NCBI GenBank assembly: GCA_963729625.1
Contig: CAVSOU010000018.1
Coordinates: 1 to 28,983, forward strand
Length of the DNA stretch: 28,983 nt
Source of the DNA: an uncultured bacterium
Lineage (GTDB): Bacteria > Chloroflexota > UBA5177 > JANWHV01
Direction of reading: 5' to 3'
Position numbers and translations under genes: made by a program. Below are positions 1 to 24,469 of the stretch, one piece after another. The notes under the pieces are model-generated. The model did no database searches. It saw only the letters and a list, made by a program, of their open reading frames with translations, and was not told the origin of the DNA. Within the stretch, counting starts at the first letter, position 1, and every line of letters begins with the position of its first letter.

Positions 1-692
1 AATGCACAGATACACCCCCATCGGCTCCAGCCTTGGTACACACAATCAGACCCGAGGCTGCAAGCTGTGCCTCATCGAAGCCTTAAGAACCAGAGCGGAC
101 TCCATCTCGGCTGGGGAAAACTACGTCTGCTTGAGCAATAAGCCGACGAACCTGCCTCCACGGTCGTGACGGAGGACCGCTTCGCGCCGGAATGCTCGGG
201 CTCAACCGACACTTTGCCGCCAGCGGCCCGAACCCTTCGCGCCGCATCGGTTACCACGTCCGCCAGTGTTGCTCCCAGGGCGATAGCGGAACCTGAGACG
301 TGCAGCCAGCTTGCGCGCTCGGGCAAGTCGCCGAGGTCTTGCAGGCGCGATTGGCCTGCGGCGGCCTCGCGCACATAAAAGACGAAGCTGCGCTCGCCGG
401 TGGCAGCATACGCGACGAAGGCTGCTGCAGTGGGAAGCACAGGATCTATGGCGATATGGTCAACACTACGCCATCCGCCGAAGTCGATCCACGATCATCC
501 GACCAAACCCGTCGTTTCCCACAGCGCCGCACATCTCGGTCTCAGCACCGAGCCGGGCTGCAGCACTGGCGAAGATGGCTGGCGCCCCATGGGTAGTGGG
601 CCGACAAACGTGGCTGTCCGGTCAAACGGCACATCACGATCCGGGCGCATGAATGCAGCGATGATTTCACCGACAACTAACAGCATAGCCAC
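1..692 (-). CDS. PfkB-family sugar kinase (frameshifted; 3' end outside window)
   Basis: Joined frames give MLLVVGEIIAAFMRP...FVGPLP..., then LPTAAAFVAYAATGERSFVFYVREAAAG and WLHVSGSA...AGGKVS, typical of PfkB N-terminal and mid domains. GGGAG RBS precedes GTG at 692 (alternative ATG at 686). Confidence 0.8.
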
Positions 693-935
693 TACTCCCA
701 GCGGGGGAACGGCACAGTCGCCTGGTGCCTCCCGCGGACGCTGTCTCTCGCGAGGCGGCTGCGCCAGCATGCACACAGAATACACTGCTGAGGACGCAGC
801 GCGTATGCTACTCCTGCCGAAGCGCCACGTCAATTGTGCAAAGTGCCGAGGATGTGCGCCGCATTGGCGGGCTACGCTGCGCCACGGCTGAGCGTAGCAC
901 GTAAACCTGGCGGGCACTCCGCGGCTGCCGCGGGG

Positions 936-1010
936 TTGCCAGCCACCGCTGGGGTAGCTTAAGATACTGATCGATTGCAAACGATATGGTTAAGAGCAAC
1001 AATATGAAAC
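936..1010 (+). promoter_or_regulatory. sigma70-type promoter with downstream phased-repeat operator (copy C), upstream of the cyclase-E1a-E1b-E2 operon
   Basis: TTGCCA (936-941), 18-nt spacer, TAAGAT (960-965), then ACTGATCGATTGCAAACGATATGGTTAAGAGCAACAATATGAAA, which is conserved in two other copies in this window. Confidence 0.7.
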
Positions 1011-1171
1011 AGGAGCGAATGCAGCGACCTGGCAAAGTGGCGCGTGGGTGGTTGCCGCAAGTGATGGGGGGCGCGGCGTAGCAATCCACGCCGTACCACT
1101 CTGGCGGCGCGACGCTAGTACACGGCTGAGCAGGCCGCTGCGCGGACGAGTAGTTACGCTGAGGACGCATC

Positions 1172-1874
1172 ATGATCAATGCAAGGATCGTGGACCTAAG
1201 TCACGCGCTCTACCCTGGTCAGGAAGAGTACCACCTGAACCTGAGAACGCATAATACAGTCGATCTCTATCCGCAGTACCCGGTGGACGACGGGAGTCTG
1301 GTACATCCTCCAGGACATAGACATGTCCTCGCGACTGCGGCACCCACATCGAGTTCCCGTATCACCACAACAGGCATGGCATGGATGCCGGCAACCTTTC
1401 CACTGGCCAGTGGCTCATCGGGGACTGTGTCTTGCTTGAGCTCCAGGCACAAGAGAGTCGGGCGACCGCGATGACGCTCGCAGGAAGTCGAGGTCCTACG
1501 ACAGCGTCATTCGGGCCGTGCGACATGCTGCTGCTCGTACTTCGACTGTGCGAAATAGCTGTACCGGACTGACCATGCCGCACGATCGTCCACGGCTGTC
1601 AGCCACGACGCGATCGAAGTGGCTCGTCTTCGCCAAGCACATCGACCTGATCGGATCGGACGCATACTGGCATAGCGCTCGGGGGTGTGCGCAAACCAGC
1701 CGAACCATCGAGCTGTTGATGGGTAATGGGATACTGATTATTGAGTGCGCTGCGCATCTTGATCAACTAGAAGCCAGCGGTTCACGTTGCTGGTGCTTGC
1801 GAGTACATGGCCTGGATTCGTGTCCCATTAGGCTCATAGCAATCGAAGATCAACAGCCGGGAGGACATTCCTAA
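1172..1874 (+). CDS. Cyclase family (kynurenine formamidase-like) metal-dependent hydrolase, frameshifted
   Basis: N-terminal RIVDLSHALYPG; GTHIEFPYHH motif region at about 1335-1370; C-terminal LLMGNGILIIE..HLDQL...GLDSCPIRLIAI. The stop overlaps the next ATG (TAATG). Confidence 0.8.
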
Positions 1875-2836
1875 TGGGATCGTGCGTTCACAGGCTTCCG
1901 CACTGCAGCTCTACGGAAACATGGTCCGCATCAGAAAGTTCGAGGAGAAGCTGTTCTTCCTGTTCTCCACGAGGTCGATGCCCGGAACTATGCACCAATA
2001 CAACGGCCAGGAAGCAGTTGCGGTTGGTGTCTGCGCTGCGCTGAACATCGACGACTAATCACGAGCACGCATAGAGGTCATGGGCATTGCATAGCGAAGG
2101 GCGCTAGCCTGAATGCGGTGATGGCGGAGATGTTCGCCAAGAGCACGGGCTGCTGCAAAGGTATGGGCGGATCTATTCACATTGCGGACTTCAGTGTCGG
2201 AATGCTTGGGGCCAACGGCATCGTCGGAGCTGGCATACCCAGGCGGCCGGCGCCGCCTGGGCTTGCAAGTATCAAAAGAACGGGAAGGTGGCGGTGGCGT
2301 TCTTCGGGGACGGTGCCGCGAATGAGGGAGCTTTTCACGAGGGCATCAACCTAGCGGCGATATGGAGGCTGCCGGCCATATTCGTATGCGAGAACAACGT
2401 CTACGGATTCTCGACGCACTACAGACGAGTAACGCCCCTCGAGGACATGGCGGATAGGGCGAGTGCCTATGGAATCCCTGGAGTCGTGGCGGACGGGATG
2501 GACGTGCTTGACGTCTACTGCAAGAGCACGGAAGCTGTCGCGCGGGCACGAAGCGGGGGACGGCCCCACCTTACTGGAATGCAAAACGTATCGATTTATG
2601 GGGCATGCGCGGGCGGAGAAGCCCACCTATCGGACGCGGGATGAGCTTGAGTCGTGGAAGCTGAAAGATTCGATCATCAGCTTCGGGCGCAGGCTGGTGA
2701 AAGACTTCGACGTGGCGGCAAGCGAATTGGCAGCCGTGAACGACGCTGTTGCTGAGGAGATCGAAGAGGCGGTGGCCTTCGCGGAAGCCAGTCCTGCCCG
2801 GGAGCGCTGGATTACCGGCGCTACATCTACGCGTAG
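1874..2836 (+). CDS. TPP-dependent dehydrogenase E1 alpha subunit (AcoA/PdhA-like), frameshifted
   Basis: LYGNMVRIRKFEE, GQEAVAVG, STHRGHGHCIAKG, GMGGSIH, GANGIVGAG, TPP motif FFGDGAANEG...ENNVYG, GPTLLECKTYRFMGH. GGAGG RBS at about 1860. Confidence 0.9.
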
Positions 2837-2851
2837 GTGCTGGGAAACAAT

Positions 2852-3872
2852 ATGAACGCGACGAAGATAGTCTAGGCACTGCGGCTCGCCCTGATAGAGG
2901 AAATGACCAGAGATGAGCGCGTGGTGTTGCTGGGAGAAGAATTGGGGTGTTTGGTGGCGCATTCCGGGTGACCGAAGGCCTGTTGGATATGTTTGGCGAG
3001 GAGAGGGTGTGTGAGACGCCCATTTCGGAAATTGCCATAGTGGGCGCGGCTATTGGCGCCGCCTTAGCAGGGCTGCGTCCGGTTGCTGAGATTCGGTACA
3101 AACGATTTTATTCCCATTGGCCATGGACCAGATCTGCAATCAGCCCGCGAATCCACCTGATGATGGGCGGGCAGGTCAGCGTGCCGTTGGTCATACGGGC
3201 GCCTATGGGCTGCACGGGCAGGCCGCACAGCACTCGCAATGCCTGGAGGCGTGGTTCATGCACACGCCGGGCCTCAAGGTGGCACTGCCGTCAACCCCGT
3301 ACGACGCCAAGGGACTGCTCAAGACGGCGATACGGGACGATAACCCGGTGATGATCTTCGAGCATAAGCTGCTCTACGGTTCGCCGTCTCCTGGAGGCGC
3401 GTCCGAAGATGGCCGTCGACGACCTGGACGAGACCTTTAAGACCAGCGCCGGACGACGAGTACCTCGTGCCGTTCGGCGTGGCCGATGTCAAGCTCGAAG
3501 GCGAAGAGTGACAGTAGTGGCCACCAGCTACATGGTACATACGTCGATCAAGGCGGCTAAGGCGTTGGCTCATAAGGGCATCGAGGTGGAGGTAATCGAT
3601 CCCGAACGTTGGTGCCGCTCGATACCAGCACCATTCTGCGGTCCGTAGAAAAGACAGGCCGACTCGTAATCGTCAGCGAGGATGTAGTGACCTGCGGTGT
3701 GGCGTCGGAGATCGCAGCCATCGTAGCGGAGCAGGCGCTGTTCAGTCTTGACGCTCCAATCAGAAGAGTCTGTGTGCCGCACACGCCGATTCCCTTTGCA
3801 CCCAGCAACGTGACGGCAGTGATTCCGCAGGAGCATGATATCGTGCGGGCCATAGAGTCGGTACTGAATTAG
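2852..3872 (+). CDS. TPP-dependent dehydrogenase E1 beta subunit (AcoB/PdhB-like), frameshifted
   Basis: [84 protein letters not shown]. Confidence 0.9.
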
Positions 3873-4182
3873 TTTCGGTTTGAGCCCTCCTGACGGGAGA
3901 TGACGTGGGATGAATCCGACGCACGACTTGCATGTCGATAGATGCTATTGGTCTTCGGCCCGCGCTGAGCACGCTGTCGAGCTCGGTCCAAGGACCGCCC
4001 TCCCCAGTTGCCTGCGTACGGGTCTCGCGCCCGACCGGCCTTCCCGGCAGAGAGCCGGTTCCGCGGGGAAATCCAGCTGCGGTAGCGACATAGCTTGAGA
4101 GCATCGCCGTCCCGACGCGGGGCAAGAGGTCCCTGCGCTTTCATGACAGCGATGCTGACGATTGGCGCGGAGGTGGCCCAAC

Positions 4183-5434
4183 ATGCCGACGCAGATCATC
4201 AGTCCGAGTGAAGGCTCATCAACAGTGCCTGGTTGTGCAATGGTATGTCAAGGTAGGGGACTCAGTCAGCATCGGGGATCCCGTCTGCGAAGTCGAGACT
4301 GACAAGACAACCATTGATCTGAGTCCCCCGCTCAGGAACCGTGCTCGATATTCTCGTCGCTGGCGGTACAGAGGTGCCCGTATCCACGCCGATCGCGATC
4401 GTGGGCGAGCTCGGCGAGGAGTACACGAGCACGTCGCCAGCCGATCAGCGGGAGGGGGCGTCGAGCGTGGCGGAGCATGCGGCGCCTGCCAACGCCATTA
4501 GGGAGAGCCCTGGCCCTGTCGAACAAGTGGCGGAGCGAGCCCGGGCACTGTCATCGCCTAGAGCCAGGCGGTTGGCAAAGGAGAAAGGTGTTGCCCTGCA
4601 CGTGGTTCGCGGCAGTGGTCCCGGCGGAAGCATCGTGGAGCGGGATGTATCGGCGTGGATTTCTGAGCATCAACTCGAAGGGCGGACTCTTGACTCCGCT
4701 GGCAGCCTGGGCACGGCAAATCGCTTGGGTAGCGCAACCCAGCCAAACGCAATGAGACTCCCCGCCGAAAGTGCTGTGCCGCGGCACCGGCAGGTAATCG
4801 CGCAGCGGCTCACGCAGGCGGTGCAGACCATCCCCCACATCGTCCTCACTGCGGCCGTCGACATGCGCCGCGCCCGCGCAAACCTGGCGCGGGGGCGTGA
4901 GGCCGGCCTGGACGAGCTCACCTACACACACCTACTGCTGCGTGCCCTGGCCCGAGCCCTGCGCGCCTATCCCGCGGTCAACCGCGTCTGGCGCACGGGG
5001 GGCGGCGGCACGCAGTACCAGGCTATCGCCGGTGCCCCCGTGGGGCTGGCGGTAGCGGGGGGGACACACTGCTAGTGCCTACCATCACCGATGCCGACCG
5101 GGTCACGCTGACAGAATTAGTGCAGGCCACGCACGCGGCGGTGCACCGGGCCCGCTGCGGCGCGCTCAGCGCAGCCGATATGCAGCCGGCGGCGGTCATC
5201 CTCAACCTCGGCATGTACCGCGTGGACACATTCCAGGCGATCATCGACCCCGAACAGACGGCCGTCCTGGCCACTGGGCGCGTGCGCGAGCAGGTGGTGG
5301 CACTTGACGGCGGCATCCACGTCGTGCCTCAGCTGCAGGCCACCCTGTCTATCGACCATCGCATCGCCGACGGCGCACTGTCTGCGATGTTCCTCGGTGC
5401 CATCGTCCAGGAGCTGGAAGATGGCCAGTCCTGA
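4183..5434 (+). CDS. Dihydrolipoamide acyltransferase E2 (AcoC/PdhC-like), frameshifted
   Basis: Lipoyl domain WYVKVGDSVSIGDPVCEVETDKT; E3-binding domain SSPRARRLAKEKGV...GSGPGGSIVERDV; catalytic LSIDHRIADGA. GGAGG RBS before ATG 4183. Confidence 0.88.
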
Positions 5435-5495
5435 AACCGGTCGCGCTGCGGCTCTGCACGCAGCGGCGCACGGCTCGCTCCTCGGCCGAACGTGC

Positions 5496-6209
5496 TCATA
5501 CCGGCTGGGCCACGACCAGCCGAATACCGTGAGCGGCGCACAGCTCTTTCATGGCGGCGCTCGCCTGATCACTTACCAGCACATCCACAGCGCCCAGCTC
5601 GCAGACGCGCGCGAAGTGCGTGACACCGACCTTGCTGTGGTCCAAGGGCAGCACGACCCGATGCGCTCGCTCAATCACCGTCGCCTTGAGTTGCGCCTCC
5701 TCCAAGTCCGCCACTGTCAGGCCATTCAGAAAAGCCGCTGACGCCGATGAAGGCGAGATTCGCGGTAAACCGCTCGAGATTCTCTGTCGCCAGGCGCCAA
5801 TGAGCGCGCCTGCCACGCGGCGCAAGCGCCCGCCGACAAGAACATGTTCCACGCCCGGTAGGTCCGCCACCAACTGGGCGACCGCGATCGCATTCGTGAG
5901 CACGGTAATGTTCCGACCGGCTAGCTTGGCGGCAATGCGCTGCACGGTGCTGCCACTATCCAGGAAGATAGCATCGCCGTCCTTGATCTCGGCCAGGCAG
6001 GCACACGCGATCGCTTCCTTGGCCCCCACATTGGCTTCGGCGCGGACGTCGAGTTCGCGCTCGAGCATCAGCGCACGGCAATCGCACCCCCGTGCGTGCG
6101 CTTGACCAGGCCACTCTGCTGCAGGGCCGAGAGGTCCTTGCGAATGGTCGGCTCGGTCACGCCGAACAACGCGACCAAGTCGGCAAGGCGCCCGCGCCCG
6201 TGCACCGCT
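5496..6209 (-). pseudogene. 5'-truncated, near-identical inverted copy of the DeoR regulator at 17064-17852
   Basis: The reverse complement aligns with 17135-17856 with few substitutions (ELGAVDVLVSD vs ELDAVDVLVTD; AQPV vs AQLV). About 24 N-terminal codons are missing; homology stops at 6209. Confidence 0.85.
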
Positions 6210-6213
6210 CTGG

Positions 6214-6342
6214 TGAACTACTCGCCTGGCAGCCTAGTCACGCATCGGCTCCGACTGGTGCGACAACCCGTGCAAGCAGGGGATCGTCTGCATCTCGTCT
6301 TGCAGACGCATCAGATCGCGACGCCACCAGGCGAGTAGTTCA
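6214..6342. mobile_element. 129-bp MITE-like element with perfect 16-bp terminal inverted repeats
   Basis: TGAACTACTCGCCTGG (6214-6229) and its exact reverse complement CCAGGCGAGTAGTTCA (6327-6342); TG...CA termini; no recognisable coding content; no clear target-site duplication. Confidence 0.6.
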
Positions 6343-6375
6343 ACGCGGCCAATCGCGCACGTCGCGAGTATCAGG

Positions 6376-7392
6376 CTACATGGTCATCACCGTCTTCACA
6401 TCCATGGGACCGGGCTCGGTGACGATCACCGTGGGCACCTCCTCCAACGTGACGCGGCGGGTGATGAGCGACTCCATGTCGAGACGGCCGGAGGCGACGA
6501 GCTCGACCGCACGCCCGTGCGTCATTGGATTGAGGTAGGAGCCGACGATGCGCAACTCGCGCGAGAAGATGTCGTAGGGAGCAATGCTCGTCGTCTGGCC
6601 CTCGGGCACAACGCCAAATACCAGGACAGTGCCGCCGCGCCGCGCCATTCTGAGCGCCTGCTCGAACGTCTCCAGCTTGCCAGCGCATTCCATCGCCACG
6701 TCCACGCCGCCGGGCACCAGGCCGTCGGCAGCGCTCACAGCGGTCACGGGGTCCTTGGCCTGCGGGTCGATGGCAGCCATAGCGCCGTGCTGCTCGGCGA
6801 GCGTGCGGCCGCGCTGATGGAGCGTGGAGAGGACGATTGTGGTGGCTCCGGCCAGCCTAGCCAACTGTACCATGAGCTGCCCGATTGTACCGCCGCCAAT
6901 GATAGCCACGCTCATGCCGGGCTGGATGCCGGCACGGTCCAGGCCGTGCAGCGAGCAAGCCAGCGGCTCACACAGGGCGGCGTGTGCCGCCAGCATGTTC
7001 GGCGGCAGAGTGTACGCTTGTGTGGCGGGCACGACGGTATACTCGGCCATTCCGCCGTCGAGAGTGGCGCCCAGGGCCCGAAGTTGCGAACAGTAGGCGA
7101 CGCTTCCACGTCGGCAGTCGCGGCAGATGCCGCAGTGGATATTCGGATCCACGGCCACGCGCGTCCCGGGCTGAATCGCCGTCTCGGCCCCCGCTTCGAC
7201 GACGGTGCCGGCGAACTCGTGGCCGATCGTGAGCGGGAACGTAGCTGGAAACTCGCCGTGCAGGATATGCCGGTCGGTCCCGCACACGCCACACGCCTCA
7301 ATGCGGACCAACAACTCGCCCGGGCCCGGCGCCCGTACCTCCACCTCGTGCACACGCAGGTCCCCTATCGTCGTGACTCTCGCTGCGCGCAT
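6376..7392 (-). CDS. Zn-dependent alcohol/polyol dehydrogenase (sorbitol/threonine dehydrogenase family)
   Basis: Intact 338-aa ORF with CGVCGTD, GHEFAG, structural-Zn CGICRDCRRG...C and GGGTIG Rossmann motif. Confidence 0.92.
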   Translation of the reverse strand: MRAARVTTIGDLRVHEVEVRAPGPGELLVRIEACGVCGTDRHILHGEFPATFPLTIGHEFAGTVVEAGAETAIQPGTRVAVDPNIHCGICRDCRRGSVAYCSQLRALGATLDGGMAEYTVVPATQAYTLPPNMLAAHAALCEPLACSLHGLDRAGIQPGMSVAIIGGGTIGQLMVQLARLAGATTIVLSTLHQRGRTLAEQHGAMAAIDPQAKDPVTAVSAADGLVPGGVDVAMECAGKLETFEQALRMARRGGTVLVFGVVPEGQTTSIAPYDIFSRELRIVGSYLNPMTHGRAVELVASGRLDMESLITRRVTLEEVPTVIVTEPGPMDVKTVMTM

Positions 7393-7517
7393 GCTTGGCT
7401 CCTCTCCTTACCGTCTCGTCACCTTCGTCCTATCCTCACTGGTAGTCGCTACTCTCGCCGAGCGCCAGACCTACTGAGCCTGCCGATGCGCCAATCCGCG
7501 TACCACCCTCGCCGTGG

Positions 7518-8490
7518 TCAATAAGCTCCCAACAACTCCTCATCTGTTGCCTCGAGCACAGCGCGCTCTCGCGTGTAGAAATACGAAGCAGTCTGCCGAA
7601 CGAGCTCGTCGAGCATCGCTGCGTCGGGGCTCCCATACATCTGATCGTATGGGTTTGCTCCGGTACCCAGTGGCTAGGGAAGCAGAAGCACCTGTCGTTG
7701 TTATAGCCCGCCACGTAGAGGGCCATGATCACGATGTCCAGGTCGAGCATGCCGGTTCCGAGCGCTCTCCTGTTCGTGTCCGCCAGGTGCAAGTTCGTCA
7801 TCATGTGGCCGTAGTTCAGAATTGTCTTGCCGATGTGCTCCTCGCCAACGAGCATGTGGAATACGTCCCCCGCGATGTGCTGGATGCCTGGATGATTGAT
7901 GGCGTCGATGAGGTTCTTGGCCTCCGCAAAGGTATGGCAGAGGCTTACCTCGTCTCGCCGCACAGGCTCAAGAGCGCGCGGATCCCGCTCCTGACAAAGT
8001 CGTCGCCCAGAACCCTCATGGTGTCTGCAGCACGCTGGAACTCGTTATCGTCGTACTTGTTCGGCCGGCCAACTGCACAGGGGCCGAACAGAATGTATTT
8101 ACCACCAACCGCGGCACAGAACTCGATGTGCGTCCTCATGTAGTCGATGGCCCGCTGTCTCGCGAAGTGGTTGGTGTTCGCGAACTCATTGTCCAGATAT
8201 ATCATGCCGCAGATACCGCTCACCTTGATCCCGTGCTCACCCAGCGTCTTGAGAACCTCCTCCGGCTTGTAGCCCAGGTCGTTGCCATAGAGGTTGCCGG
8301 GCAACTCGATATACCTCACGCCGTTGCGTGCAAGCCTCTCAGCCGACACGGCCAGCGGTTCCACGCCGAATCCCCAATTGCTCCAACCAAGATTCAGTCT
8401 GGGCAGCCTCGCTATGTCCTTACTACGCCTGAATTCGAGGAATCTCCGCACCACCTCATGATCGTGCTTCCGGAAGTTCTGTCGCTCCAC
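7518..8490 (-). CDS. Sugar (phosphate) isomerase/epimerase, xylose-isomerase-like TIM barrel (D-psicose/D-tagatose 3-epimerase-like), frameshifted
   Basis: WSNWGFG, YIELPGN, RQRAIDYMRTHIEFCAAVGG, EVSL, GDVFHM..GE, HLADTNRRALGTGMLD. The reconstructed C-terminal frame ends ...EELLGAY* at 7518. Confidence 0.8.
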
Positions 8491-8724
8491 TGCCTACTCC
8501 TCTCCAAGAACACTTCCCGGTCGATACCGGCGGGAACTGATCAGCGGCCTACGCGCGAGTATGTCAGCAGTCGCATCGGCGTGCCTCCGCCGGCGATCGC
8601 ACGTCGAAGAGGACGAACGCTTCGAAGACATGCCACGCCGAGATGCGACGTGCTTCTCTATCTACGGACCTCCCGTCGTCGGACCAGGCCGGACTGGCCG
8701 CGCACCTCGCCATCGGGTCCGTCT

Positions 8725-9503
8725 CTATTCTGTGGTTGAGCGGAGAAGGGCCGGCGCCTCATCGTCCGCGGCCATCAGCCCGACGAGCTGATCGCGCGTG
8801 AGTTCGCCCGTCCGTGCCTCAGCCAAATTGCGACCGTGCCGGAGAACCGTGAAGCGGTCTCCGACCGTGATGGCATGTGTCACATTGTGGGTAATGAAGA
8901 TAATGGCCAGACCGTCGGCGCGTGCCGTCGCGACGAGCCGCAGCACGATCGCTGCTTCATGCACGCCGAGCGCCGAGGTGGGCTCGTCAGTATCAGCACC
9001 GAGGCCCCGAAGTACATGGCGCGGGCAATGGCGACCGACTGTCGCTGGCCGCCGGACAGCGTGCTCGTGGACTGGCGTGCGCTATGCAGGCTGATCCCGA
9101 CCCGCTTGAGCTCTGTGAGCGTGATCTCTCGGCGGAAGCCCAGTCGACCCCGGCGAAGAGGACCCCAGCCGGTCGACGGCTCGCGGGCGAGGAAGAAGTT
9201 GCCGACCACCGACATCAGCGGGATCATCGCCAGATCCTGGAAGACGGTGGCGATGCCGGCTTCGAGCGCGTCGCGCGGTGAATGGAAATTGACCGGCTTG
9301 CCATCCAGCTGTATCTCCCCCGAATCCGGGCGGTGGACGCCCGAAAGCACCTTGATAAGCGTCGACTTGCCGGCCCCATTGTCGCCGAGCAGGCAAAGCA
9401 CCTCGCCCGGTTCAACCTTGAGCGAGACATTAGTAAGAGCGGCGACCCCCGGAAAGTGCTTCGTGATCTTGATCGCCTCGAGCGTTACTTGGCTGATCGC
9501 CAT
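8725..9503 (-). CDS. Monosaccharide ABC transporter ATP-binding protein (single domain), frameshifted
   Basis: Walker [10 protein letters not shown], signature [14 protein letters not shown], Walker B region ILDEP split by an indel at about 8990, H-loop ITHN. Confidence 0.92.
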
Positions 9504-10559
9504 CTGGGCCTCATCGCGCGTCTGCGCACGAAGTGGTTGAGCGCGACCGCGCCGAGCAGCATCGAGCCCAGCATGGTCTGGAACCAGTTCGCGTCGATGT
9601 TGGTAAAGAAGATGCCCTGGTTGACCATTCCAAACGCGAGCGCGCCAAACCAGGCGCCGATCGCCAGCCGTAACCGCCGGTCAGCAGCGTGCCGCCAATT
9701 ACGGACGCGGTGACCGCCTGGAACTCGACGTTTGTGCCCTGCCCGACATCGGCCGAGTTCGTCTCAATCACCTGTATAACGGCAACCAGCGCCGCCGCCA
9801 GCGCGCAGCAGATATAGAGCAGCACTCGCACCCGGTCCACCGGGACGCCGACGTTCCGCGCAGTGTTGAGATCGCCACCGGTCGCGTAGGTCCAGTTTCC
9901 AAACGACGTCTTGCGGAGCACCCAGAAAGCGACGAGCGCCAGGACGACCCACCAGACGACCGAGATAGGAAACTGGCCGATATAGCTGTTGAAGAAGACA
10001 TGGAGAGGGCTGCCGCCCGCCTTGTCGTTGACACCCTGTATCTGCGTGTTGTTTGTAACGAGGCTGGTTAGTGCTATCGTCGCTCCACGAAGAATGTAGA
10101 GCGTCGCCAGCGTCACAATGAACGACGGCAGCCCGGTCTTGATGACCAGGATGCCATTGGTCAGACCGACCACAATAGCGACAAACGCGACCAGGGCGAG
10201 CGACGGCAGCACCGGCCAGCCGAGTCGGGTGACCGTGTACGAGAACATCATCGCGGCGACGCCGAGCATGGAGCCTACGGAGAGATTGAATGTCACCGGC
10301 GATCATCAGCATCGCTACCGGCACGACGATGATGCCCTAGCTCCGCCGCAACCTGGAAGTAGTTGACCGTCCCGGCCGTACTCAGGAACCCGCGGCCGCT
10401 CGCGGCAAAGGCAAAGAAGGCAAAGACCGCTACCACCGCGACCAACGCACCCGTCTCAGGCTGCGTCGTCAGCGTGTAGAACCAGTCGGAGAGCCGGGTA
10501 CGAAGCCAGCCACCGCGCCGAGCGGCCTGTTCGTTCGACTCAGCGACCAATGGTTCCAT
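9485..10559 (-). CDS. Monosaccharide ABC transporter permease (RbsC/BPD_transp_2 family), frameshifted
   Basis: Multiple hydrophobic helices; [56 protein letters not shown]. Confidence 0.9.
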
Positions 10560-10648
10560 CAGCTGTCTCCTTAGCGCCTCACGACGAGGGTGTCGGGGCG
10601 CCGTGGCCCAGCGGACATGACGCCCCGACGTTGTAGATATCGTGCGAG

Positions 10649-11688
10649 TTAGCGGTATCCGGCCGCGGACAGAGCCATGACCGAGGCGGCATCCTTTGCA
10701 AGAATGAAGTTTGGACCGCTCAGCTCTGTCTGAACGGGCTTCAGTCCGTACTGCACATTGAGCGCGATCCATATCATCGGCAGGTACCCCTGCAGGTACT
10801 GCTGTTGATCGATGGCAAAGAGGACCTGGCCGCTTTGGATCGCCGTCAGCGTCGTCGGGTCAAAGTCGAACGTCGCGATCTTGAACTGCGACTGCTTGTT
10901 CAAATCTTTCACGGCGATCAGCGCGGCGTCGCAGTTGGGCTCGGCGCCGAGGCTGAAGATGCCGTCGAAGTCGGTGCTGGTGATCGCGGCTTTGACCGGT
11001 TGACTGAGTTCGAGACCGAGTTGACATCCGTCGCGACCACCTTGGTCGTGCCCTTGAATCCGGCGATGAACGCGTTCTGCCGGATGCGGAGCCCCTGCTC
11101 AGCCAGATTGTGATTCAGGATGAACGCCTTCTTCACGCCGGCCGCGCTCATCCGCTTGCCGGCTGCGACACCGGCCGCGTACTCATCCTGGCCGACGTAG
11201 CCGAGAGCGCCCCACTCTTGCCACTGTCCTATGCCCTGATTGATCATGACAACTTTGATGCCTGCGGCAACAGCTTGCTTGACCGGGCCTTCCATCGCGC
11301 TCGCATCCCAGACGCCGGTCACGATGCCGGTCGGCTGCGTGGCAATTGCCGCTTTGACGAGCCGCGGCTGGTCGATCGTGGCGTCGAAATTCGCCGTGCC
11401 CCGGACATCCACCGTGATCCCGAGGTCCTTTCCGGCCTGATGCGCCCCACCGGCGAGCGTCCCGAAGAACCCGCGCGCAAGGCCGCCCGTCTGCGGATAC
11501 TCGATCCGGATCTTGTTCCGTGGCATGATGTCGTTGGATCGATTGAGCATAGCGTCCGCCGCGGACGCGATCTGCTTGTCCGACAGCAAGCCGCCGTACG
11601 AGACCGCAGCCGTCGCGATAAGTGAACGCTTCAGGAAACTCGATCGCCCAATGCCACCCTTCGGCTGTGAATTCAACTGGTCGGCCAT
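10649..11688 (-). CDS. Sugar ABC transporter substrate-binding protein (periplasmic binding protein type 1), frameshifted
   Basis: N-terminal export signal; AGKDLGITV, AVAAGIKVVMIN, YVGQDEYAAGVAAG, C-terminal FAIDQQQYLQGYL. Confidence 0.88.
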
Positions 11689-11850
11689 GTTTCACCTCTC
11701 CTAGCTATTTGTGCCCAGCCACGCAAACGTATCGGAACGGACCGTAGGGAACCGGCTATGAGCAACGGCGCATGGCAATCTCGCAGCTGCACCTCCTTTC
11801 CACGTCATCTGAGTGGCCATGACCCCGGCTGGACGCTCGGGACGACCTGG

Positions 11851-11874
11851 CAGAGTGATACCGAATATATTCAT
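11851..11874 (-). pseudogene. Relic of the first ~8 codons of an rpe-like gene
   Basis: ATGAATATATTCGGTATCACTCTG vs ATGAAAACATCGGTATCACTCTG at 16792-16770, preceded by a homologous leader and RBS. Confidence 0.65.
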
Positions 11875-11935
11875 GTTCACCCTACCCGTACTCACCACCG
11901 ATTCGCAACTCGCCCGGTCGCTCCGCTCGCTCCTA

Positions 11936-12008
11936 TTTCAGACTGTTGCTCTTAGGCATATCGGACTCAATCGGTTAGTATCTTATGCCCGCTCAGGAAG
12001 CCTGTCAA
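11936..12008 (-). promoter_or_regulatory. sigma70 promoter with operator (copy A) upstream of the ABC transporter/epimerase/ADH operon
   Basis: TTGACA (12008-12003), 17-nt spacer, TAAGAT (11985-11980), then ACTAACCGATTGAGTCCGATATGCCTAAGAGCAACAGTCTGAAA. Confidence 0.8.
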
Positions 12009-12145
12009 GCCAGGGCCATGGGCGGGGTCGCGCAGGATGCGGCGCCTCGCGCTTGGAACGAAGCGCCAGAGAAGCAAGGAACGCGTACAATCCATGCGAT
12101 AGCAAGCGAAAGAGCGAAAGAGAGGGAACCACCGCGCACTCGAAG

Positions 12146-12217
12146 GTGGAACGCGAACGCGACGTTCGCGCCGGGCCGACGTTGAGGCCAAAGGATGCAG
12201 TGGCGCGTGCCTGCCTG
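12146..12217 (+). pseudogene. Decayed internal fragment of a deoR paralog
   Basis: VERERDVRAGPTLRPKDAVARACL vs LERELDVRAEANVGAKEAIARACL in the 17064 gene. It follows TACAATccatgcgatagcaagcgaaag (12086), which is homologous to TACAATtcatacggtagtaatcgaaag (17018). Confidence 0.65.
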
Positions 12218-12955
12218 ATGCCCCTTGTATGCTCATGCTGACGGGCCCCTTGAAATCATACTGTCCCTCGACTGACTGCGTTCAGCAACCATGAAACGTA
12301 GTCGCCAGGCGTCCAGACCTTCGGTCCCAGCCTGGTGCCAGAGTATCAGCATATTGGGAAGATGATCAAGAGCTTTCGCCAGAATCCTATTGCTGGATCT
12401 AGCGTTTATTGCTGATATTGCGCGGCCCAGCAGCCAGCTCGCCGCACAATGACAGATTGACCAGCCGCGGGCCATGCCCCGCGCGGTGACAGTCGCCGAG
12501 ATGGCACGTATGGCGGGGTGTGCCTAGATGAAGCAGGGCGCCTGCGTGGCAGGTGCCGGTGCCGACATGACGCCTAACTCACTCGTCCGAGTGCGATAAG
12601 TGGAGAGTGAAGGCCGGAGCTGTCACAGACTAGCGAATATGCCTTGACTCCTGTTGCTCGTGCTGATAATCTGACAGCGAACCTGGAACTGTGCAAGTCT
12701 CGTCCCGCCCAAGCTTAGCGGTAGACGCCAAGGCGCCGCCGTCGAAAGGGCCTTGGTATGTGGAGCTTGTCACTGTGGAGATGCGGTAGCGTTTGCGGCG
12801 TGGCTGGCTTCGAGGACAGGCGACCGAACTCAAGCCACGAGGAAACCCGCAGCACCGTAGGTACTGACCGCCGTGTCTGTCGGCTGGGGCATGTAGGTTC
12901 CGGCGTGGCACCACAAGAGAGCACGGCGTCAATTGTGAGGAGGGCAGGAAGGTAA

Positions 12956-13799
12956 ATGGGAGCGGGCTTCAGATATCGCATGGCACGGCTCTTCGGCGAA
13001 AGCGGTAACGGTCGCTCTATGATCCTGGCCATGGATACGATATAGCTTTAGGCGCGGTGCCCGGTTTGGACAATCCTCGATCACTGTTAGAGTCACTTCA
13101 AGATTCGGGTATCGACGGCACGATACTCTGCCTAGGCATGGCCGGCCAGACTGCAGACCTCTTTGCAAGGCGCGGCGCACCAGCACGTGTGCTCACGGTT
13201 GACCTTCCGCTGCACTCGAATATTCCTGGCAACGTGGAAGACTTCAAGGCCTACGACATGGTGGCATCGGTGGAGGACGCCGTCCGACTAGGCGTGGAGT
13301 GTGTCAAGGCCATGGTCATCTGGGGCCTGGACCACGAGCTGGAAATGCGCATGCTGGCAAAGGTTGCCAAGCTCCGCCAGGCATGCGCGTTGTGGGACAT
13401 GCCGCTCATGATCGGACAGTCCTCTGGGGCCAAGCCATCCCTGAGAGCGAGCGCGCCGATGGTAGGCTAATCGCCAACGCGTGCCGCATCTGTGCCGAAT
13501 TGGGCGCAGACATTATCAAGGCACCGTTTGTGAGTGATATCGACGCGCTACACAGTATCGTCGTTCAAACCCCTGTACCGATTGTGATTCTGGGCGGCCC
13601 GAAAGCCGCCTCAGCGAGAGACGTGCTCGAGAAAGCCGCCCTGGCCATGAGCGCCGGTGTGGCTGGAATTGTGTTCGGGCGAAACGTGTGGCAGTACGAC
13701 GACCCGCCAAGGATCAGCACCGCACTTCGGCACATCGTACATGACAACATGTCGGTCGATGAGGCCATGCAGACTGTCGGTTCTATTCCATGGAGCTAG
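12956..13799 (+). CDS. DhnA/LsrF-type class I aldolase, frameshifted
   Basis: RMARLFG...MILAMD, SVEDAVRLG..CVK, RICAELGADIIK (Schiff-base Lys), PIVILGGPK, GIVFGRNVWQ. GGAAGG RBS before ATG 12956. Confidence 0.85.
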
Positions 13800-14719
13800 A
13801 TATCCTAGCAATCGGCATCTGCACGGTTGACCTTATTGCGTGCGTCCCGGACTTTCCCAGACCGGACGGCCACATGAACATGACCGCTCTGGTGACATCG
13901 CTGGGAGGCATTGCTGCGATCGCGGGCGCTACCGCTGCGCGACTCGGCGCACACGTCGGCTACGCCGGCACGGTAGGCGACGACGATGCTGGCCGAGGTG
14001 TTTTTAGCGCGCTCAGATCGGACGGCGTCGATGTCACGCTGCTTGATGTTCAGCGTGGCGCAGGTACTCCTAGCTGCATCGTGATCTCGAATAGAGCCGC
14101 TGGCACACGCAGCATCCTTAATGACCCCAACGTCGCTTCATATGGGCTGCACGCGCGAGCGGAGGTCCGCTCCATAGCCACACAGGCGCGGTATCTCCAC
14201 CTTGACTTCTCAGCATTCCAGGGCCTGGCCCAGGATATCCTGCCGTATTGCCGAGGCGCTGGCACTCGCGTCAGTATAGATGCCGGCGTCGACTTCTCCG
14301 GGATCTGGGATTATCTCCCGTATATGGATGTATATGCCAGCACTGATGATCAGATCAAGGCAATGACCGGTGAGCCCGACCTAGCCCGAGGCATGACCTT
14401 GGTCCGCGCTGCAGGACCCGAGATTGTTGTCGCCACACTTGGTGAGCGTGGCAGCGCCGGGCTTTCAGCTGAGGGTCGCATGATATTCGCTCCCGCTTTC
14501 GACGTGCCGGTGATAGACACGCTCGGGGCGGGTGACGTGTTCCACGGCGCATTGCTGTATGCGCTGCTGAAGGGAAGGAATCTGGAGGATGCTCTCGAAT
14601 TCTCCAATGCGGCCGCCGCGCTGAGCTGCCAGGTGGTAGGTGGCCGCAATGGTTGTCCCACGCTTGGCGCCGTCGAGGCGTTGCTAGCGGCAGGTTGCCC
14701 GCGCAAAGGCCAGCTGTGA
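13790..14719 (+). CDS. PfkB-family carbohydrate kinase (ribokinase/sulfofructose-kinase-like)
   Basis: Intact 309-aa ORF with GGIAAIAGATAARLG...GTVGDD and PfkB signature IDTLGAGDVFHG. Confidence 0.92.
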   Translation: MELDILAIGICTVDLIACVPDFPRPDGHMNMTALVTSLGGIAAIAGATAARLGAHVGYAGTVGDDDAGRGVFSALRSDGVDVTLLDVQRGAGTPSCIVISNRAAGTRSILNDPNVASYGLHARAEVRSIATQARYLHLDFSAFQGLAQDILPYCRGAGTRVSIDAGVDFSGIWDYLPYMDVYASTDDQIKAMTGEPDLARGMTLVRAAGPEIVVATLGERGSAGLSAEGRMIFAPAFDVPVIDTLGAGDVFHGALLYALLKGRNLEDALEFSNAAAALSCQVVGGRNGCPTLGAVEALLAAGCPRKGQL

Positions 14720-14847
14720 AGTGGAGACTGTCTGCCCAGTAGATCCCGCGCACGTATTCCCTGTAAACATCCGTGCGCCGCATGAACCGGGTGTCCACTG
14801 TTCGCCGGTAACGCCGTGTCCCTCGGCGAGACGCGGGGAGGACTCCA

Positions 14848-15627
14848 ATGGCTGACCCCGTTCGTGACCTGATGGCGTCAGAGCGGCGTCAGCGTATCGC
14901 GCTGTTGACGGCGCAGCGTGGTGCCGTGCGCGTGAGCGAGCTGACGGAATTGTTCAAGGTCTCAGCCGCCACGATTCGGGCTGATCTCACTTTGATGGCG
15001 CAGCAAGGCCAGCTTCTTCGCGCCCACGGCGGTGCCGTTTCACTCGGTCGCCTCGCTTTGGGCACCGCGCATAATCAGCGCGCCGCCGAGAACGCCGAGG
15101 AAAAGAGCCGCATTGGACGGATGGCAGCTAGCCTGGTGCGACCGCATGACAAAATCATTCTGGACGCGGGCACAACCGTCATGGCGATGGTAAAGAGCCT
15201 TTCAGTCAGCCCACTGGTGGTCGTGACCGCCGCACTCAACATAGCAATGCACGTTGGCGGACTGCCCGGTGTCCGCGTGCTGGTTGCAGGAGGCTGGCTG
15301 AATACCGAGTCGATCAGCAACGAGGGTCCGAAGGCCGAGCACGATATGTCTGATATCTTTGTGGAGAAGACGTTTCTCGCAACGCACGCTATCGATGCGG
15401 ACATCGGACTGACCGATGCGTCACTCGAGATCGCGCGAGTGAAGCACGCGATGACAAGAGCGGCACGCCAGGTCATCCTGCTGGCCGACTCGAGCAAGTG
15501 GGGCCGTATCGCCTTCGCCAAAGTGGTGCCATGGTCATCGATACACACTTTCATTACCGATACGGCGTTGCCTCGCGAGGCGCGGGCGGCGCTCGAGCGG
15601 TCGGGGATCGAGTTGATTCTCGTCTAA
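14848..15627 (+). CDS. DeoR/GlpR-family transcriptional regulator
   Basis: HTH ELTELFKVSAATIRADL...RAHGGA, IILDAGTT, VILLADSSKWG. GAGGA RBS. Confidence 0.93.
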   Translation: MADPVRDLMASERRQRIALLTAQRGAVRVSELTELFKVSAATIRADLTLMAQQGQLLRAHGGAVSLGRLALGTAHNQRAAENAEEKSRIGRMAASLVRPHDKIILDAGTTVMAMVKSLSVSPLVVVTAALNIAMHVGGLPGVRVLVAGGWLNTESISNEGPKAEHDMSDIFVEKTFLATHAIDADIGLTDASLEIARVKHAMTRAARQVILLADSSKWGRIAFAKVVPWSSIHTFITDTALPREARAALERSGIELILV

Positions 15628-15742
15628 AGTGAGGCCACGATGAAACCCGCAAGTGAAGCGCGGCTCACCAGCACAACGTGATGTAGATCCCGTCGTGGCT
15701 TCGGTATAGGTGCTTGCTAAAGGCAGATCGACAAAAAGTTGT

Positions 15743-16090
15743 CTATGACGCGACACCGAGATCGGCGAAGAGCGCGTGCATGTCCTCGCGCAGGGTTTGG
15801 TAGTGGTCGTCCAGTGGGGTCCAGGGCGTGAGGTCGCGTGCTGCAGAGGGTGGACTAGCGCTGGCAAGCAGTGGCTTGATCACCTGCTCGCGCAGCACGG
15901 CCAGCGCGGTGATGGCGCGGACTCCGTCGGCGGGGACGTCGTAGCGACGGGAGCGTGGGAGCCGCACCACGAAGCTCTTGGCGCGTAGCTTGCGCAGATC
16001 GTAGGCGGCCTGCCGGGTGCCATAGCTGGCCGCCAACGTACCGAGCCGCAGGCGGACCTGGAACGCGAGATCCCGGAGCCTGAAGCTCAC
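15743..16090 (-). pseudogene. C-terminal fragment of an uncharacterised transposase-like protein (RQAAYDLRKLR motif)
   Basis: FRLRDLA.QVR...YGTRQAAYDLRKLRAK..V.RLPRSRRY......R.I.AL.VLRE.VIKPLLA resembles, from recall, the winged-helix C-terminus of large mobile-element proteins. GACAA-AAAG-TTGTC hairpin lies at the stop. The N-terminal part is absent. Confidence 0.5.
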
Positions 16091-16099
16091 TGGTGCCCG

Positions 16100-16792
16100 T
16101 TACTCTTGCCTGGCAGCCTGACCTACCTCGGCAGCAGCGTGGCCTTCCACCGTTTGGGCGGCAATCCACAGCACTGCCGCTGCTGGGTCAGCGTCACCGA
16201 AGACCAGCGATCCTGGCGTCACGCCGTCGGCACCAGCTTTTGCCAGGCTCGGCACGATGGTGCGACGGATGCCGCCGTCGACGAATACTTCCGGACGCCG
16301 CGTAGTGCGCGCGCGTTGCTCCACGGTCGCCTGGACGCGTGCGTAGATCGTGGGATCGATGTCTACTCCTTTGATACCCAGCCGTGTGCCCATGAGTAGC
16401 ACGCGATCCATCCGCTCGAGCAAGGCCCAGGTAGGCTCAAGCGGATCGTCGACACCAACTGCGAGTGCGGGTCGCACACCGAGCGCCTCGATCCGGGCCA
16501 ACGCTACCCTTACGTCTGCGCACGCCTCCGCGTGGACGGTGAGCATCCCGGCGCCGGCTTCGGCAAACGGGCGAATCCAGTAATCGGCATCGGTCACCAT
16601 GAGATGGACGTCTACTAAGCGGTGCGTCCGCTGCGTGACCGCGTGCACGAAGTCGGGACCGAACACGAGGTTGGGCACATAGTGGCCATCCATGATGTCG
16701 ATATGGAAGCCCGCCACGACGTGCTCGACGCGCGCCATTGCCGTCCCGACGGCAAGGAGATCGGCCGACCAGAGTGATACCGATGTTTTCAT
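16100..16792 (-). CDS. rpe: Ribulose-phosphate 3-epimerase family protein (Rpe/AlsE-like)
   Basis: SLWSAD, HIDIMDGHYVPNLVFG, DVHLMV, HAE, LLMG, VDGGI; intact 230 aa. Confidence 0.88.
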   Translation of the reverse strand: MKTSVSLWSADLLAVGTAMARVEHVVAGFHIDIMDGHYVPNLVFGPDFVHAVTQRTHRLVDVHLMVTDADYWIRPFAEAGAGMLTVHAEACADVRVALARIEALGVRPALAVGVDDPLEPTWALLERMDRVLLMGTRLGIKGVDIDPTIYARVQATVEQRARTTRRPEVFVDGGIRRTIVPSLAKAGADGVTPGSLVFGDADPAAAVLWIAAQTVEGHAAAEVGQAARQE

Positions 16793-16854
16793 GTCACCCC
16801 CTGCCCGTACTCACTGCCGGCTCGCCGATGGCCTGGTCGCCTCGCTCGCCCGTG

Positions 16855-16929
16855 TTTCACTTTGTTGTCGTTTATGCATATCGTATTCAATCGATAAGTA
16901 TCTTATGCCAGCGTAGGGATGTCTGTCAA
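16855..16929 (-). promoter_or_regulatory. sigma70 promoter with operator (copy B) upstream of the rpe-like gene
   Basis: TTGACA (16929-16924), 18-nt spacer, TAAGAT (16905-16900), then ACTTATCGATTGAATACGATATGCATAAACGACAACAAAGTGAAA. Confidence 0.8.
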
Positions 16930-17014
16930 GCACGGGCCATGCGCGTGTGGCGCGCACAGGCGGCACAGATGTTCGAGTCCAGAGTAGTGCGGCACTGCGG
17001 CGGAGGTACGAAGC

Positions 17015-17023
17015 TGCTACAAT
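17015..17023 (+). promoter_or_regulatory. Extended -10 promoter candidate for deoR
   Basis: TGcTACAAT about 40 nt before GTG 17064; TACAAT is retained in the paralogous relic at 12086. Confidence 0.5.
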
Positions 17024-17063
17024 TCATACGGTAGTAATCGAAAGCGAGGGAGGGGGCTACACG

Positions 17064-17852
17064 GTGACGCGGGAACCGCTGCCGGAGCCGGCCGTCTTCG
17101 CCGATGAGCGCCAATCCCGCATCGCCGAACTCGTAGCGGTGCACGGGCGCGTGCGCCTTGCCGACTTGGTCGCGTTGTTCGGCGTGACCGAGCCGACCAT
17201 TCGCAAGGACCTCTCGGCCCTGCAGCAGAGTGGCCTGGTCAAGCGCACGCACGGGGGTGCGATCGCCGTGCGCTCGATGCTCGAGCGCGAACTCGACGTC
17301 CGCGCCGAAGCCAATGTGGGGGCCAAGGAAGCGATCGCGCGTGCCTGCCTGGCCGAGATCAAGGACGGCGATGCTATCTTCCTGGATAGTGGCAGCACCG
17401 TGCAGCGCATTGCCGCCAAGCTAGCCGGTCGGAACATTACCGTGCTCACGAATGCGATCGCGGTCGCCCAGTTGGTGGCGGACCTACCGGGCGTGGAACA
17501 TGTTCTTGTCGGCGGGCGCTTGCGCCGCGTGGCAGGCGCGCTCATTGGCGCCCTGGCGACAGAGAATCTCGAGCGGTTTACCGCGAATCTCGCCTTCATC
17601 GGCGTCAGCGGCTTTTCTGAGAATGGCCTGACAGTGGCGGACTTGGAGGAGGCGCAACTCAAGGCGACGGTGATTGAGCGAGCGCATCGGGTCGTGCTGC
17701 CCTTGGACCACAGCAAGGTCGGTGTCACGCACTTCGCGCGCGTCTGCGAGCTGGATGCCGTAGATGTGCTGGTGACTGATCAAGCGAGCGCCGCCATGGA
17801 AGAGCTGTGCGCCGCTCACGGTATTCGGCTGGTCGTGGCCCAGCTGGTATGA
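17064..17852 (+). CDS. DeoR/GlpR-family transcriptional regulator, divergent from rpe
   Basis: ERQSRIAELV...LVALFGVTEPTIRKDL...RTHGGA, IFLDSGST, DHSKVG. GGAGG RBS before GTG 17064. Confidence 0.93.
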   Translation: MTREPLPEPAVFADERQSRIAELVAVHGRVRLADLVALFGVTEPTIRKDLSALQQSGLVKRTHGGAIAVRSMLERELDVRAEANVGAKEAIARACLAEIKDGDAIFLDSGSTVQRIAAKLAGRNITVLTNAIAVAQLVADLPGVEHVLVGGRLRRVAGALIGALATENLERFTANLAFIGVSGFSENGLTVADLEEAQLKATVIERAHRVVLPLDHSKVGVTHFARVCELDAVDVLVTDQASAAMEELCAAHGIRLVVAQLV

Positions 17853-18044
17853 GCAGGTCCACGCAAGGAGGGAACAAAACTCATCGCGGTGGCCGTGCTA
17901 GCTTCGCTAATGTTTCGAGAGTTGCGCAATGGGCAACGGCGCCCGTTGAGCATTATCACCACGTGGGCCGCGCTATGCAAAGCTTGGATCTGGGGCGGCT
18001 GTTGTGCGTACGACAAGTGGCTGGCCAGCTCATTCCCAGTTCCA

Positions 18045-19592: not shown

Positions 19593-19819
19593 GTTCGGCT
19601 CTCCTTTACCGCGTCACCAATCAAGCATGCACTTCACTACCGTCGCGCCTGCCACACGCTTCCGCCAAGCCGTATGAGCTTGCCTGGCAAGGGCTGGGTT
19701 TGCAGCGGTGGCTGGGCCGTGCCAGGTGCGGCGTGCCGGCGCTGTCCCTGTCCCTGCTCCTGCTGGTGCACAAACACCACCCGCAGCACGTGGCGGAACT
19801 GCTCTGGGTACTTGCGCAC

Positions 19820-22344: not shown

Positions 22345-22467
22345 GCCACGTCCACCGCGCTCCGGTCGTGGAATTCTCACCTGTCGTTGGTCTACCAGAA
22401 CATCGCGCCTGCGCGCTCTAGCGAGCTGCCGCGGCCAGGTCACGTCAAGGCATTATAACGGCGGAAC

Positions 22468-24250: not shown

Positions 24251-24271
24251 GATCTTGCCGGAGTTGACGAT

Positions 24272-24431: not shown

Positions 24432-24469
24432 CATGGTCACGAGTATTTACATTGGGAAGGGCACAAAAG

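Follow-up and report, generated by a model that had tools for sequence, protein, structure and literature searches.

A promoter-operator-leader module copied from an rpe-deoR1 control region suggests a small DeoR-family regulon in an uncultured Chloroflexota bacterium

The window analysed here, a stretch of 28,983 nucleotides that makes up the entire contig C18 (CAVSOU010000018.1) in the assembly of an uncultured Chloroflexota bacterium (GCA_963729625.1; 5.4 Mb in 21 contigs, 87% complete, 5% contamination, approximately 63% G+C), contains three copies of one module, in which a sigma-70-like promoter and a conserved leader of about 75 nt are held in common. The copies, designated C, A and B, precede a cyclase-E1/E2 operon, an ABC transporter-epimerase-alcohol dehydrogenase (ADH) operon and an rpe-family epimerase gene, respectively. 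These units had been named in an initial annotation made from the sequence, and were recovered here by Pfam and NCBIfam scans, from which all gene families are given; the deoR gene starting at 17064 (deoR1) is divergent from copy B, as that annotation had described. Sequence comparison supports well that the copies share a promoter-operator cassette maintained by selection, and control by a DeoR-family repressor is likely. DeoR1 is the favoured regulator candidate on sequence grounds, because its own promoter carries the repeat element of the module. We hold with moderate confidence the fuller reading that a DeoR-family direct-repeat operator lies over positions -10 to +17 and is probably bound by autoregulated DeoR1, which would co-repress the three operons. 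It is from sequence that we infer the role of the module as a DNA operator, the protein that binds it, the effector and the transcription starts.

The alignment of copies C, A and B showed the pattern of the initial annotation at all three places. Each copy is composed of a -35 hexamer, a spacer of 17-18 nt and TAAGAT, then ACT-n-A-n-CGATTG-n4-CGATATG-n2-TAA-n3/4-CAACA-n3-TGAAA, followed by GCGA and GCGACC-n-GGC. The hexamers match the consensus at 10, 10 and 9 of 12 positions and a gene lies downstream on the same strand, as is expected of a sigma-70-type promoter. A consensus scan of window positions 1-19999 detected nine promoter-like sites, the three modules being ranked at the top, when shuffled sequences gave 4.6 on average (sd 2.2). 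The module has a G+C content of 49-55%, which makes it an AT-rich core in this assembly, and the leaders extend about 100 nt (copy B), 285 nt (copy A) and 200 nt (copy C) to the first start codon. The pairwise identities by BLAST were 76.7% over 163 nt (A-B), 77.1% over 96 nt (C-A) and 73.7% over 99 nt (C-B).

A profile scan of the own genome, as proposed in the initial annotation, was carried out with nhmmer over the whole assembly and gave four matches at E<=10, corresponding to copies A, B and C and to C13:17685-17877 on another contig. The last is 98.9% identical to copy C and probably represents an allele or a strain variant instead of a fourth paralogue, because it lies inside a 95.7%-identical duplicate of window 1-9598. 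The R1 model applied to the window with filters off found no additional degenerate copy.

The module would have originated in the control region between the divergent rpe and deoR1 genes, on its rpe side. The direction of copying, from the copy B locus to A and C, is clear from the sequences, since the N-termini of rpe and deoR1 read as ordinary family sequence at B but survive in A and C as non-coding relics. Judged by alignment, copy A duplicates the complete divergent control region, the 5' ends of both genes included, in decayed form. The local alignment paired 12227-11816 with 17168-16734 and spanned the intergenic region together with the first approximately 35 codons of deoR1; taken by itself, the section upstream of the module scored 51, which 0 of 500 shuffles reached (mean 25.7, sd 3.8, maximum 42). 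The start of rpe persists in copy A as an ATG at 11874-11872 and the block CGGTATCACTCTG at 11863-11851, about 185 nt upstream of the real start and out of frame; in copy B the same block encodes a conserved N-terminal strand of the epimerase. Copy C, the leader of which retains another rpe relic, is by the same comparison a shorter or more decayed duplicate, homology beyond about -100 not being detectable (P=0.45). Plain segmental duplication appears the simplest mechanism, because inverted ends were not found around the copies. A miniature inverted-repeat transposable element or a mobile promoter borne on an insertion sequence (IS) was considered and rejected, as there were no terminal inverted repeats and only local copies in the 5.4 Mb. 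The coding relics, the nature of copy A as a whole control-region duplicate, and the matching layout of the deoR1 promoter described below are new with respect to the initial annotation.

Conservation along the module was uneven. Columns invariant among the three copies accounted for 51/74 in the core from -10 to +75, compared with 7/18 in the -35/-10 spacer (Fisher P=0.028), 11/27 upstream of the -35 hexamer (P=0.012) and 13/51 in the columns next to the core (P=2e-6); an unrelated flank gave 14/84. The view that the blocks are kept while the spacers have diverged was borne out in this respect, both hexamers being kept in all copies as the spacer drifted. Because the whole of copy A dates from one event, it works as an internal control. 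Within the A-B duplicate, the module part (-60 to the rpe ATG) showed 72-80% identity with 4 gap columns in 157, compared with 53% identity and 47 gap columns in 123 for the deoR1 coding relic and 52% identity for the stretch between both promoters. Of the 22 ungapped variable columns in the core, five have three different bases, when about 1.7 would be expected at a uniformly slow rate (a rough star-tree estimate made by hand). Recent gene conversion is therefore unlikely, in view of such heavily diverged columns.

We consider it improbable that the similarity is historical only, i.e. that the copies are leftovers of segmental duplication, perhaps refreshed by gene conversion, with promoters that may work but without a shared operator or co-regulation. 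The island is indeed prone to rearrangement, as seen in a 724-bp inverted repeat of 97.7% identity, an IS transposase and the coding relics in A and C, and the way in which invariant columns group into blocks is not significant by itself (13 runs vs approximately 16 expected, counted by hand in alignment A1). Such a history does not agree with a module that stayed nearly gap-free between gap-rich flanks of about 52% identity, with the three-base columns, or with hexamers retained beside a drifting spacer. We conclude from these sequence comparisons that purifying selection acts on the hexamers and the core at each of the three sites.

The core is best defined over GATAC-N5-GATTG-N5-GATATG, where three GAT cores follow at exact 10-bp steps in every copy; the repeat set thus consists of two CGAT(T/A) direct repeats from about +1 plus one GAT within the -10 hexamer. 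The putative deoR1 promoter has an extended -10 element (TGCTACAAT) and shares the module layout TAAGAT-6 nt-CGATTG-N4-CGATATG, namely a -10 element, 5-6 nt, and two CGA-type repeats 10 bp apart. At least two direct repeats, imperfect and 10-11 bp in period, were found in all three modules, in the deoR1 promoter and in its relic in copy A. The covering pattern TA..AT-N5/6-CG.T.G-N4-CGA.A had six matches in 10.8 Mb (both strands), all of which were at this locus: the three modules, the C13 allele, the deoR1 promoter and the relic of that promoter. The tighter repeat pair alone had 30 matches in 10.8 Mb, six of them at this locus. A chance match in the deoR1 upstream region of approximately 130 bp is unlikely, because the background amounts to only about 24 sites in 10.8 Mb. 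The centres of the repeat pairs on the rpe side (16889) and the deoR1 side (17036) are approximately 147 bp apart, close to 14 helical turns, and approximately 135 bp apart in copy A; a speculative thought is that the 147-bp spacing would suit looping by an oligomeric DeoR.

The promoter and DNA operator might also serve another protein, such as the second DeoR-family regulator DeoR2 (14848), the protein of the ROK family encoded at 22471-23448 or a regulator encoded elsewhere, or the core might be divided between two proteins, with the CGAT repeats bound by one and the +30 to +75 part by the other. There are two DeoR genes within the island and at least seven further DeoR-family loci elsewhere in the genome, and the sequence of the +30 to +75 blocks is different from that of the CGAT repeats. 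Neither the module nor the repeat element was found upstream of the aldolase-PfkB-deoR2 operon, whereas the repeat arrangement is present at the promoter of deoR1, the gene physically divergent from the source copy. We regard this alternative as unlikely, and DeoR1 remains the preferred candidate.

The conserved leader could instead act as RNA, i.e. as a cis-regulatory element for ligand or protein binding, stability or translation control common to the three transcripts, the promoter being constitutive. The conservation reaches about +75, longer than in most operators, and every conserved block past the -10 hexamer would be transcribed. A predicted hairpin pairs the GGTAnCACTCTG block with sequence on the Shine-Dalgarno side, one pair of which is kept in copy C through a two-sided change (columns 88/130, AU to GC). 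However, Rfam gave no match at the gathering score and none in the leaders even at E<=1, at which the single match, P15 (E=0.37), fell inside deoR1. The folding energies of the leaders were no better than those of shuffles (z-scores 0.15, -0.74 and -0.51), the consensus fold came to a weak -11.8 kcal/mol and its covariation term (+0.67) lent no added support, and the first approximately 40 transcribed nt, which hold the best-conserved blocks, were predicted to be unpaired. Neither a covariance-model match nor a stable conserved structure, by which a known cis-regulatory RNA would be recognised, was thus obtained. Copy A interrupts a small stem that spans the CGAT repeats, the blocks lie in an AT-rich stretch typical of protein-DNA sites in a core that overlaps the -10 hexamer, and the same repeat pair follows the -10 element of the otherwise unrelated deoR1 leader. 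Control by the leader RNA is accordingly quite improbable as an explanation of the module. A leader peptide starting from the ATG of CGATATG was rejected, as its frame is lost in copy B and it is codon positions 1-2 that vary (judged by eye). It is a very doubtful idea that the +30 to +75 part of the leader travels with the operator as an undescribed element that controls a sugar-phosphate pathway at the RNA level; if true, the cassette would impose two layers of control on any operon placed behind it.

Returning to the DeoR-family operator as the preferred reading, the module would comprise a sigma-70-type promoter, an overlapping repressor operator and a leader. Two local segmental duplications would have put it ahead of two other operons, copy A taking the whole control region of approximately 410 bp and copy C at least -60 to +150, and selection would then have kept the hexamers together with a core that runs from -10 to about +75, as the rest decayed. 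A DeoR-family repressor, most likely DeoR1, would block RNA polymerase when bound to the repeats and be released when a sugar phosphate of the pathway binds its C-terminal sensor domain. DeoR1 may also repress itself through the matching arrangement at its own promoter.

Several observations weigh against this reading. The repeat units have only 3-4 nt in common, and they lie at or past the predicted start (about +1 to +17), so that the transcript has them too; the blocks at +30 to +75 (TAA, CAACA, TGAAA, GCGA and GCGACC-GGC) are unlike the CGAT repeats and unexplained. The covering pattern was written after the deoR1 site had been seen, so that its rarity makes the evidence look stronger than it is. 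Some of the conservation could be imitated by gene conversion, and only three paralogues are available for comparison. The contig is indel-rich (147 gap openings in 9.6 kb against its twin), and single-base differences in spacing may be errors.

The periodicity of the repeats also counts on this side. The GA cores of copy C do occur at 963, 973, 983, 994 and 1006 as initially annotated, but the phasing of five units at about one helical turn could not be distinguished from chance, and only the first three GAT cores are solid. The Fourier analysis of the invariant columns peaked at 8.5 nt, the band of 9.5-11.5 nt giving P=0.11, and self-similarity at lag 10 was not significant (P=0.19 for the first 35 nt and P=0.087 for the whole region), with lags 9 and 15 nominally significant. 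Past the third unit the register differs between the copies (units 4-7): copy B has an extra base before CAACA, GA is placed differently relative to CAACA, and the step from one GCGA block to the other is 9 nt instead of 10. A FruR-like array of at least four helically phased units was rejected on the 8.5-nt peak, the P value of 0.11 and the loss of register in units 4-7. From the tests of periodicity and self-similarity, a two-to-three-unit operator was therefore kept and the five-unit array was dropped.

Relatives likewise gave no phylogenetic footprint: BLAST detected module homologues in 0 of 60 relatives. The 19-position pattern, with up to two mismatches allowed, had five non-self matches in 400 genomes of the phylum compared with four for the reversed control, which is chance level, and the R1 model gave nothing convincing in 20 other genomes of the class, its only two matches being at E of about 0.2. 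Among the genomes searched, no orthologous deoR/rpe pair bearing the module was found. Words shared with the upstream regions of 48%-identical DeoR relatives occurred at chance (P=0.33), and TACGATAT and TGAAA, which are common to the module and the upstream regions of DeoR1 relatives, were rejected as shared signals on this ground.

DeoR1 has no close relative in the genome and metagenome collections, where identity is at most 52%; the nearest (48-52%) come from assemblies labelled Acidimicrobiaceae and from metagenome contigs. At six of these loci (L013, L014 and L019-L022), the sequence upstream can be read as a divergent gene that starts like an FGGY kinase; Pfam bore this out for L013 alone. 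The same-genus genomes contain no orthologue of DeoR1 (best 38%) or of the window Rpe (best 42%). In the same-genus genome G001, the 19-position pattern matched once upstream of a DeoR paralogue, which is used as an analogy only. The best homologue of DeoR1 in a same-genus genome (38%) faces a gene for a sugar-binding protein and has tandem 10-bp repeats (two of GATnCTGCACGA and two more TGCACGA words) about 117 bp upstream. At locus L007 (positions 1501-1641; G001:C10), four TGCACGA words lie between a DeoR paralogue and a sugar-binding-protein gene, two of them in tandem 10-bp units; one overlaps the -35 hexamer of a TTGACA-17 nt-TAGGCT promoter and one is inverted. This is a likely operator set for that DeoR paralogue. 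Elsewhere in the genome of the window (C11:42983-50049), there is a paralogous pair in which an rpe-family gene (40% identical to that of the window) lies about 6 kb from a DeoR2-like gene (58%), and the profile search found no module copy there.

The positions of the modules, genes and relics are collected in Table 1.

Table 1. Coordinates of the module copies, their promoter and repeat elements, the associated genes and the duplication relics in the window.
Feature	Position	Strand	Details
Module copy C	934..1039	+	R1 model 98.9 bits; conserved leader blocks to about 1035
Copy C hexamers	-35 936-941; -10 960-965	+	TTGCCA; TAAGAT
Copy C repeats	GAT cores 963, 973, 983	+	within CGATTG-N4-CGATATG at 972-988
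rpe 5' coding relic in copy C	1091..1104	+	CCGTACCACTCTGG, in the approximately 200-nt leader
Operon behind copy C	1172..5434	+	cyclase-family protein (first ATG 1172), E1 alpha, E1 beta, E2
Operon behind copy A	6376..11688	-	sugar-binding protein (ATG 11688), permease, ABC ATPase, TIM-barrel epimerase/isomerase, Zn-ADH
Full copy A	11816..12227	-	decayed duplicate, approximately 410 bp, of the rpe-deoR1 control region; homologous to 16734..17168
Module copy A	12010-11903	-	R1 model 100.9 bits
Copy A hexamers and repeats	-35 12008-12003; -10 11985-11980; repeats 11982-11957	-	-35 TTGACA
deoR1 promoter/operator relic in copy A	12086..12112	+	TACAAT, 5 nt, CGATAG-N4-CGAAAG
deoR2	14848..15627	+	second DeoR-family regulator; HTH_DeoR 1.2e-14, DeoRC 8.3e-44
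ORF directly behind rpe	15743-16090	-	115 aa; would be transcribed from copy B with rpe; no Pfam/NCBIfam match; third-position G+C 0.82
rpe-family epimerase behind copy B	16100-16792	-	152.7 bits, below the equivalog cut-off of 212.6 bits
Segment homologous to copy A	16734..17168	-	rpe 5' end, intergenic region, deoR1 5' end
Module copy B	16931-16822	-	R1 model 100 bits; likely source copy
Copy B hexamers	-35 16929-16924; -10 16905-16900	-	-35 TTGACA
Copy B repeats	GAT cores 16902, 16892, 16882	-	rpe ATG at 16792
Putative deoR1 promoter	17015..17044	+	extended -10 TGCTACAAT (17015-17023), 5 nt, CGGTAG-N4-CGAAAG
deoR1	17064..17852	+	DeoR-family regulator, 262 aa; HTH_DeoR 9.4e-17, DeoRC 9.4e-46

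The gene deoR1 begins with GTG after the Shine-Dalgarno sequence GGGAGGGGG, and is followed by genes for a xylulokinase, which scored above its equivalog cut-off, and for a second dehydrogenase. DeoR2, encoded by the last gene of the aldolase-PfkB operon, is 34% identical to DeoR1; both proteins have an N-terminal helix-turn-helix (HTH) domain and a C-terminal DeoRC sensor domain, and neither reached an NCBIfam equivalog cut-off. The frames of the copy C operon are broken in the window and more intact on C13, on which version the PF04199 domain of the cyclase-family gene was seen, and several frames of the copy A operon are broken by indels. None of the frames tested in window 12240-12950, the stretch of about 700 bp from copy A to the aldolase ATG at 12957, matched a family. 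A weak resemblance to a promoter, TTGACT-17 nt-TAATCT, was noted by eye within this stretch at about 12641-12669, and the aldolase frame is broken at about 13040. An unexplained repeat of 86 bp (window 15624-15709), located just past the deoR2 stop, is 98.8% identical to C8:222191-222276; it could form a long imperfect hairpin, with a folding energy no better than shuffles (z = -0.81).

The 724-bp inverted repeat (97.7% DNA identity) joins window 5490-6209 (-) with 17135-17858 (+). Its first arm, which is also present on C13 and lies where the E2 and ADH operons end, is a copy of deoR1 that is truncated at the 5' end and frameshifted. This much younger duplicate is probably a pseudogene, although it could encode a sensor-only fragment. 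The repeat could mediate inversion of the 11-kb segment between its arms. At the border of the sugar island, window 21100-22317 (-) encodes a DDE transposase with its associated N-terminal domain, a copy of which (95.5% over 1198 bp) is located at C11:636818-638013.

Both ends of the window are duplicated in the assembly. Positions 1-9598 recur at C13:16768-26393 (9.7 kb, 95.7% identity), and positions 22207-28983 at the start of contig C19 (C19:1-6781, 98.2% identity). Because both ends duplicate C13 and C19, contig C18 looks like a strain or haplotype variant of the C13-C19 junction. Along the 9.6 kb shared with C13 there are 241 substitutions as well as 147 gap openings, which are unevenly spread, with almost none in 250-1250 and approximately 63 in 1250-1750. 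This pattern points to a noisy consensus on the contig besides strain or haplotype variation. Since the twin contigs differ by many indels and their frame breaks are at different places, most frameshifts are read as assembly errors.

In a lineage that is uncultured and poorly sampled, the module gives a DeoR-family regulator a concrete candidate operator and regulon. It would clearly illustrate how a small regulon is put together when an entire promoter-operator-leader cassette is copied; the coding relics reveal the donor and the direction of copying, and the decayed flanks of copy A provide a built-in neutral control for what selection kept. Current ideas on DeoR regulation are not challenged. 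The route proposed to a small regulon is a tidy but ordinary one.

In Escherichia coli, the repressors DeoR, GlpR, AgaR and SrlR have sugar-phosphate inducers and several operators per regulon, and DeoR works through a palindrome and long-range looping, in contrast to the direct repeats found here. DeoR1 scored against the GlpR, AgaR and SrlR models below each cut-off, and orthology is not claimed. The initial annotation had cited direct-repeat operators over promoters as established for the DeoR family, FruR included, which agrees with PMC3870299 and PMC11906611 as far as their sections on these regulators go. The former gives the motifs of the family as two direct repeats that are imperfect and have a 10-11 bp period, including predicted RhaR motifs in Chloroflexales, in regulons that are local and cover one to several operons. 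According to the latter, FruR of Bacillota recognises adjacent 10-bp direct repeats, eight of which, from -47 to +42, are footprint-protected in Faecalibacterium prausnitzii. The present system resembles RhaR and FruR as described there (PMC3870299, PMC11906611) in having a local DeoR-family regulator beside sugar-catabolic operons, several adjacent operons probably under control, and direct repeats, imperfect and 10-11 bp in period, over the core promoter and past the start. It differs from FruR in the predicted repeat word, CGAT[T/A] instead of TGAWWGWTTT, and in the number of clear units, 2-3 compared with 4-8; for the +30 to +75 blocks, no counterpart could be named in the RhaR and FruR systems within those sections. 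The reuse of promoters by putative mobile promoters, described in PMC3575422, likewise places one promoter region ahead of non-homologous genes in one genome and rewires their regulation. Unlike those elements, the copies found here are old (approximately 77% identical), lie within 16 kb and have no transposon-like ends, and their relics of the coding starts of the donor genes point to plain segmental duplication.

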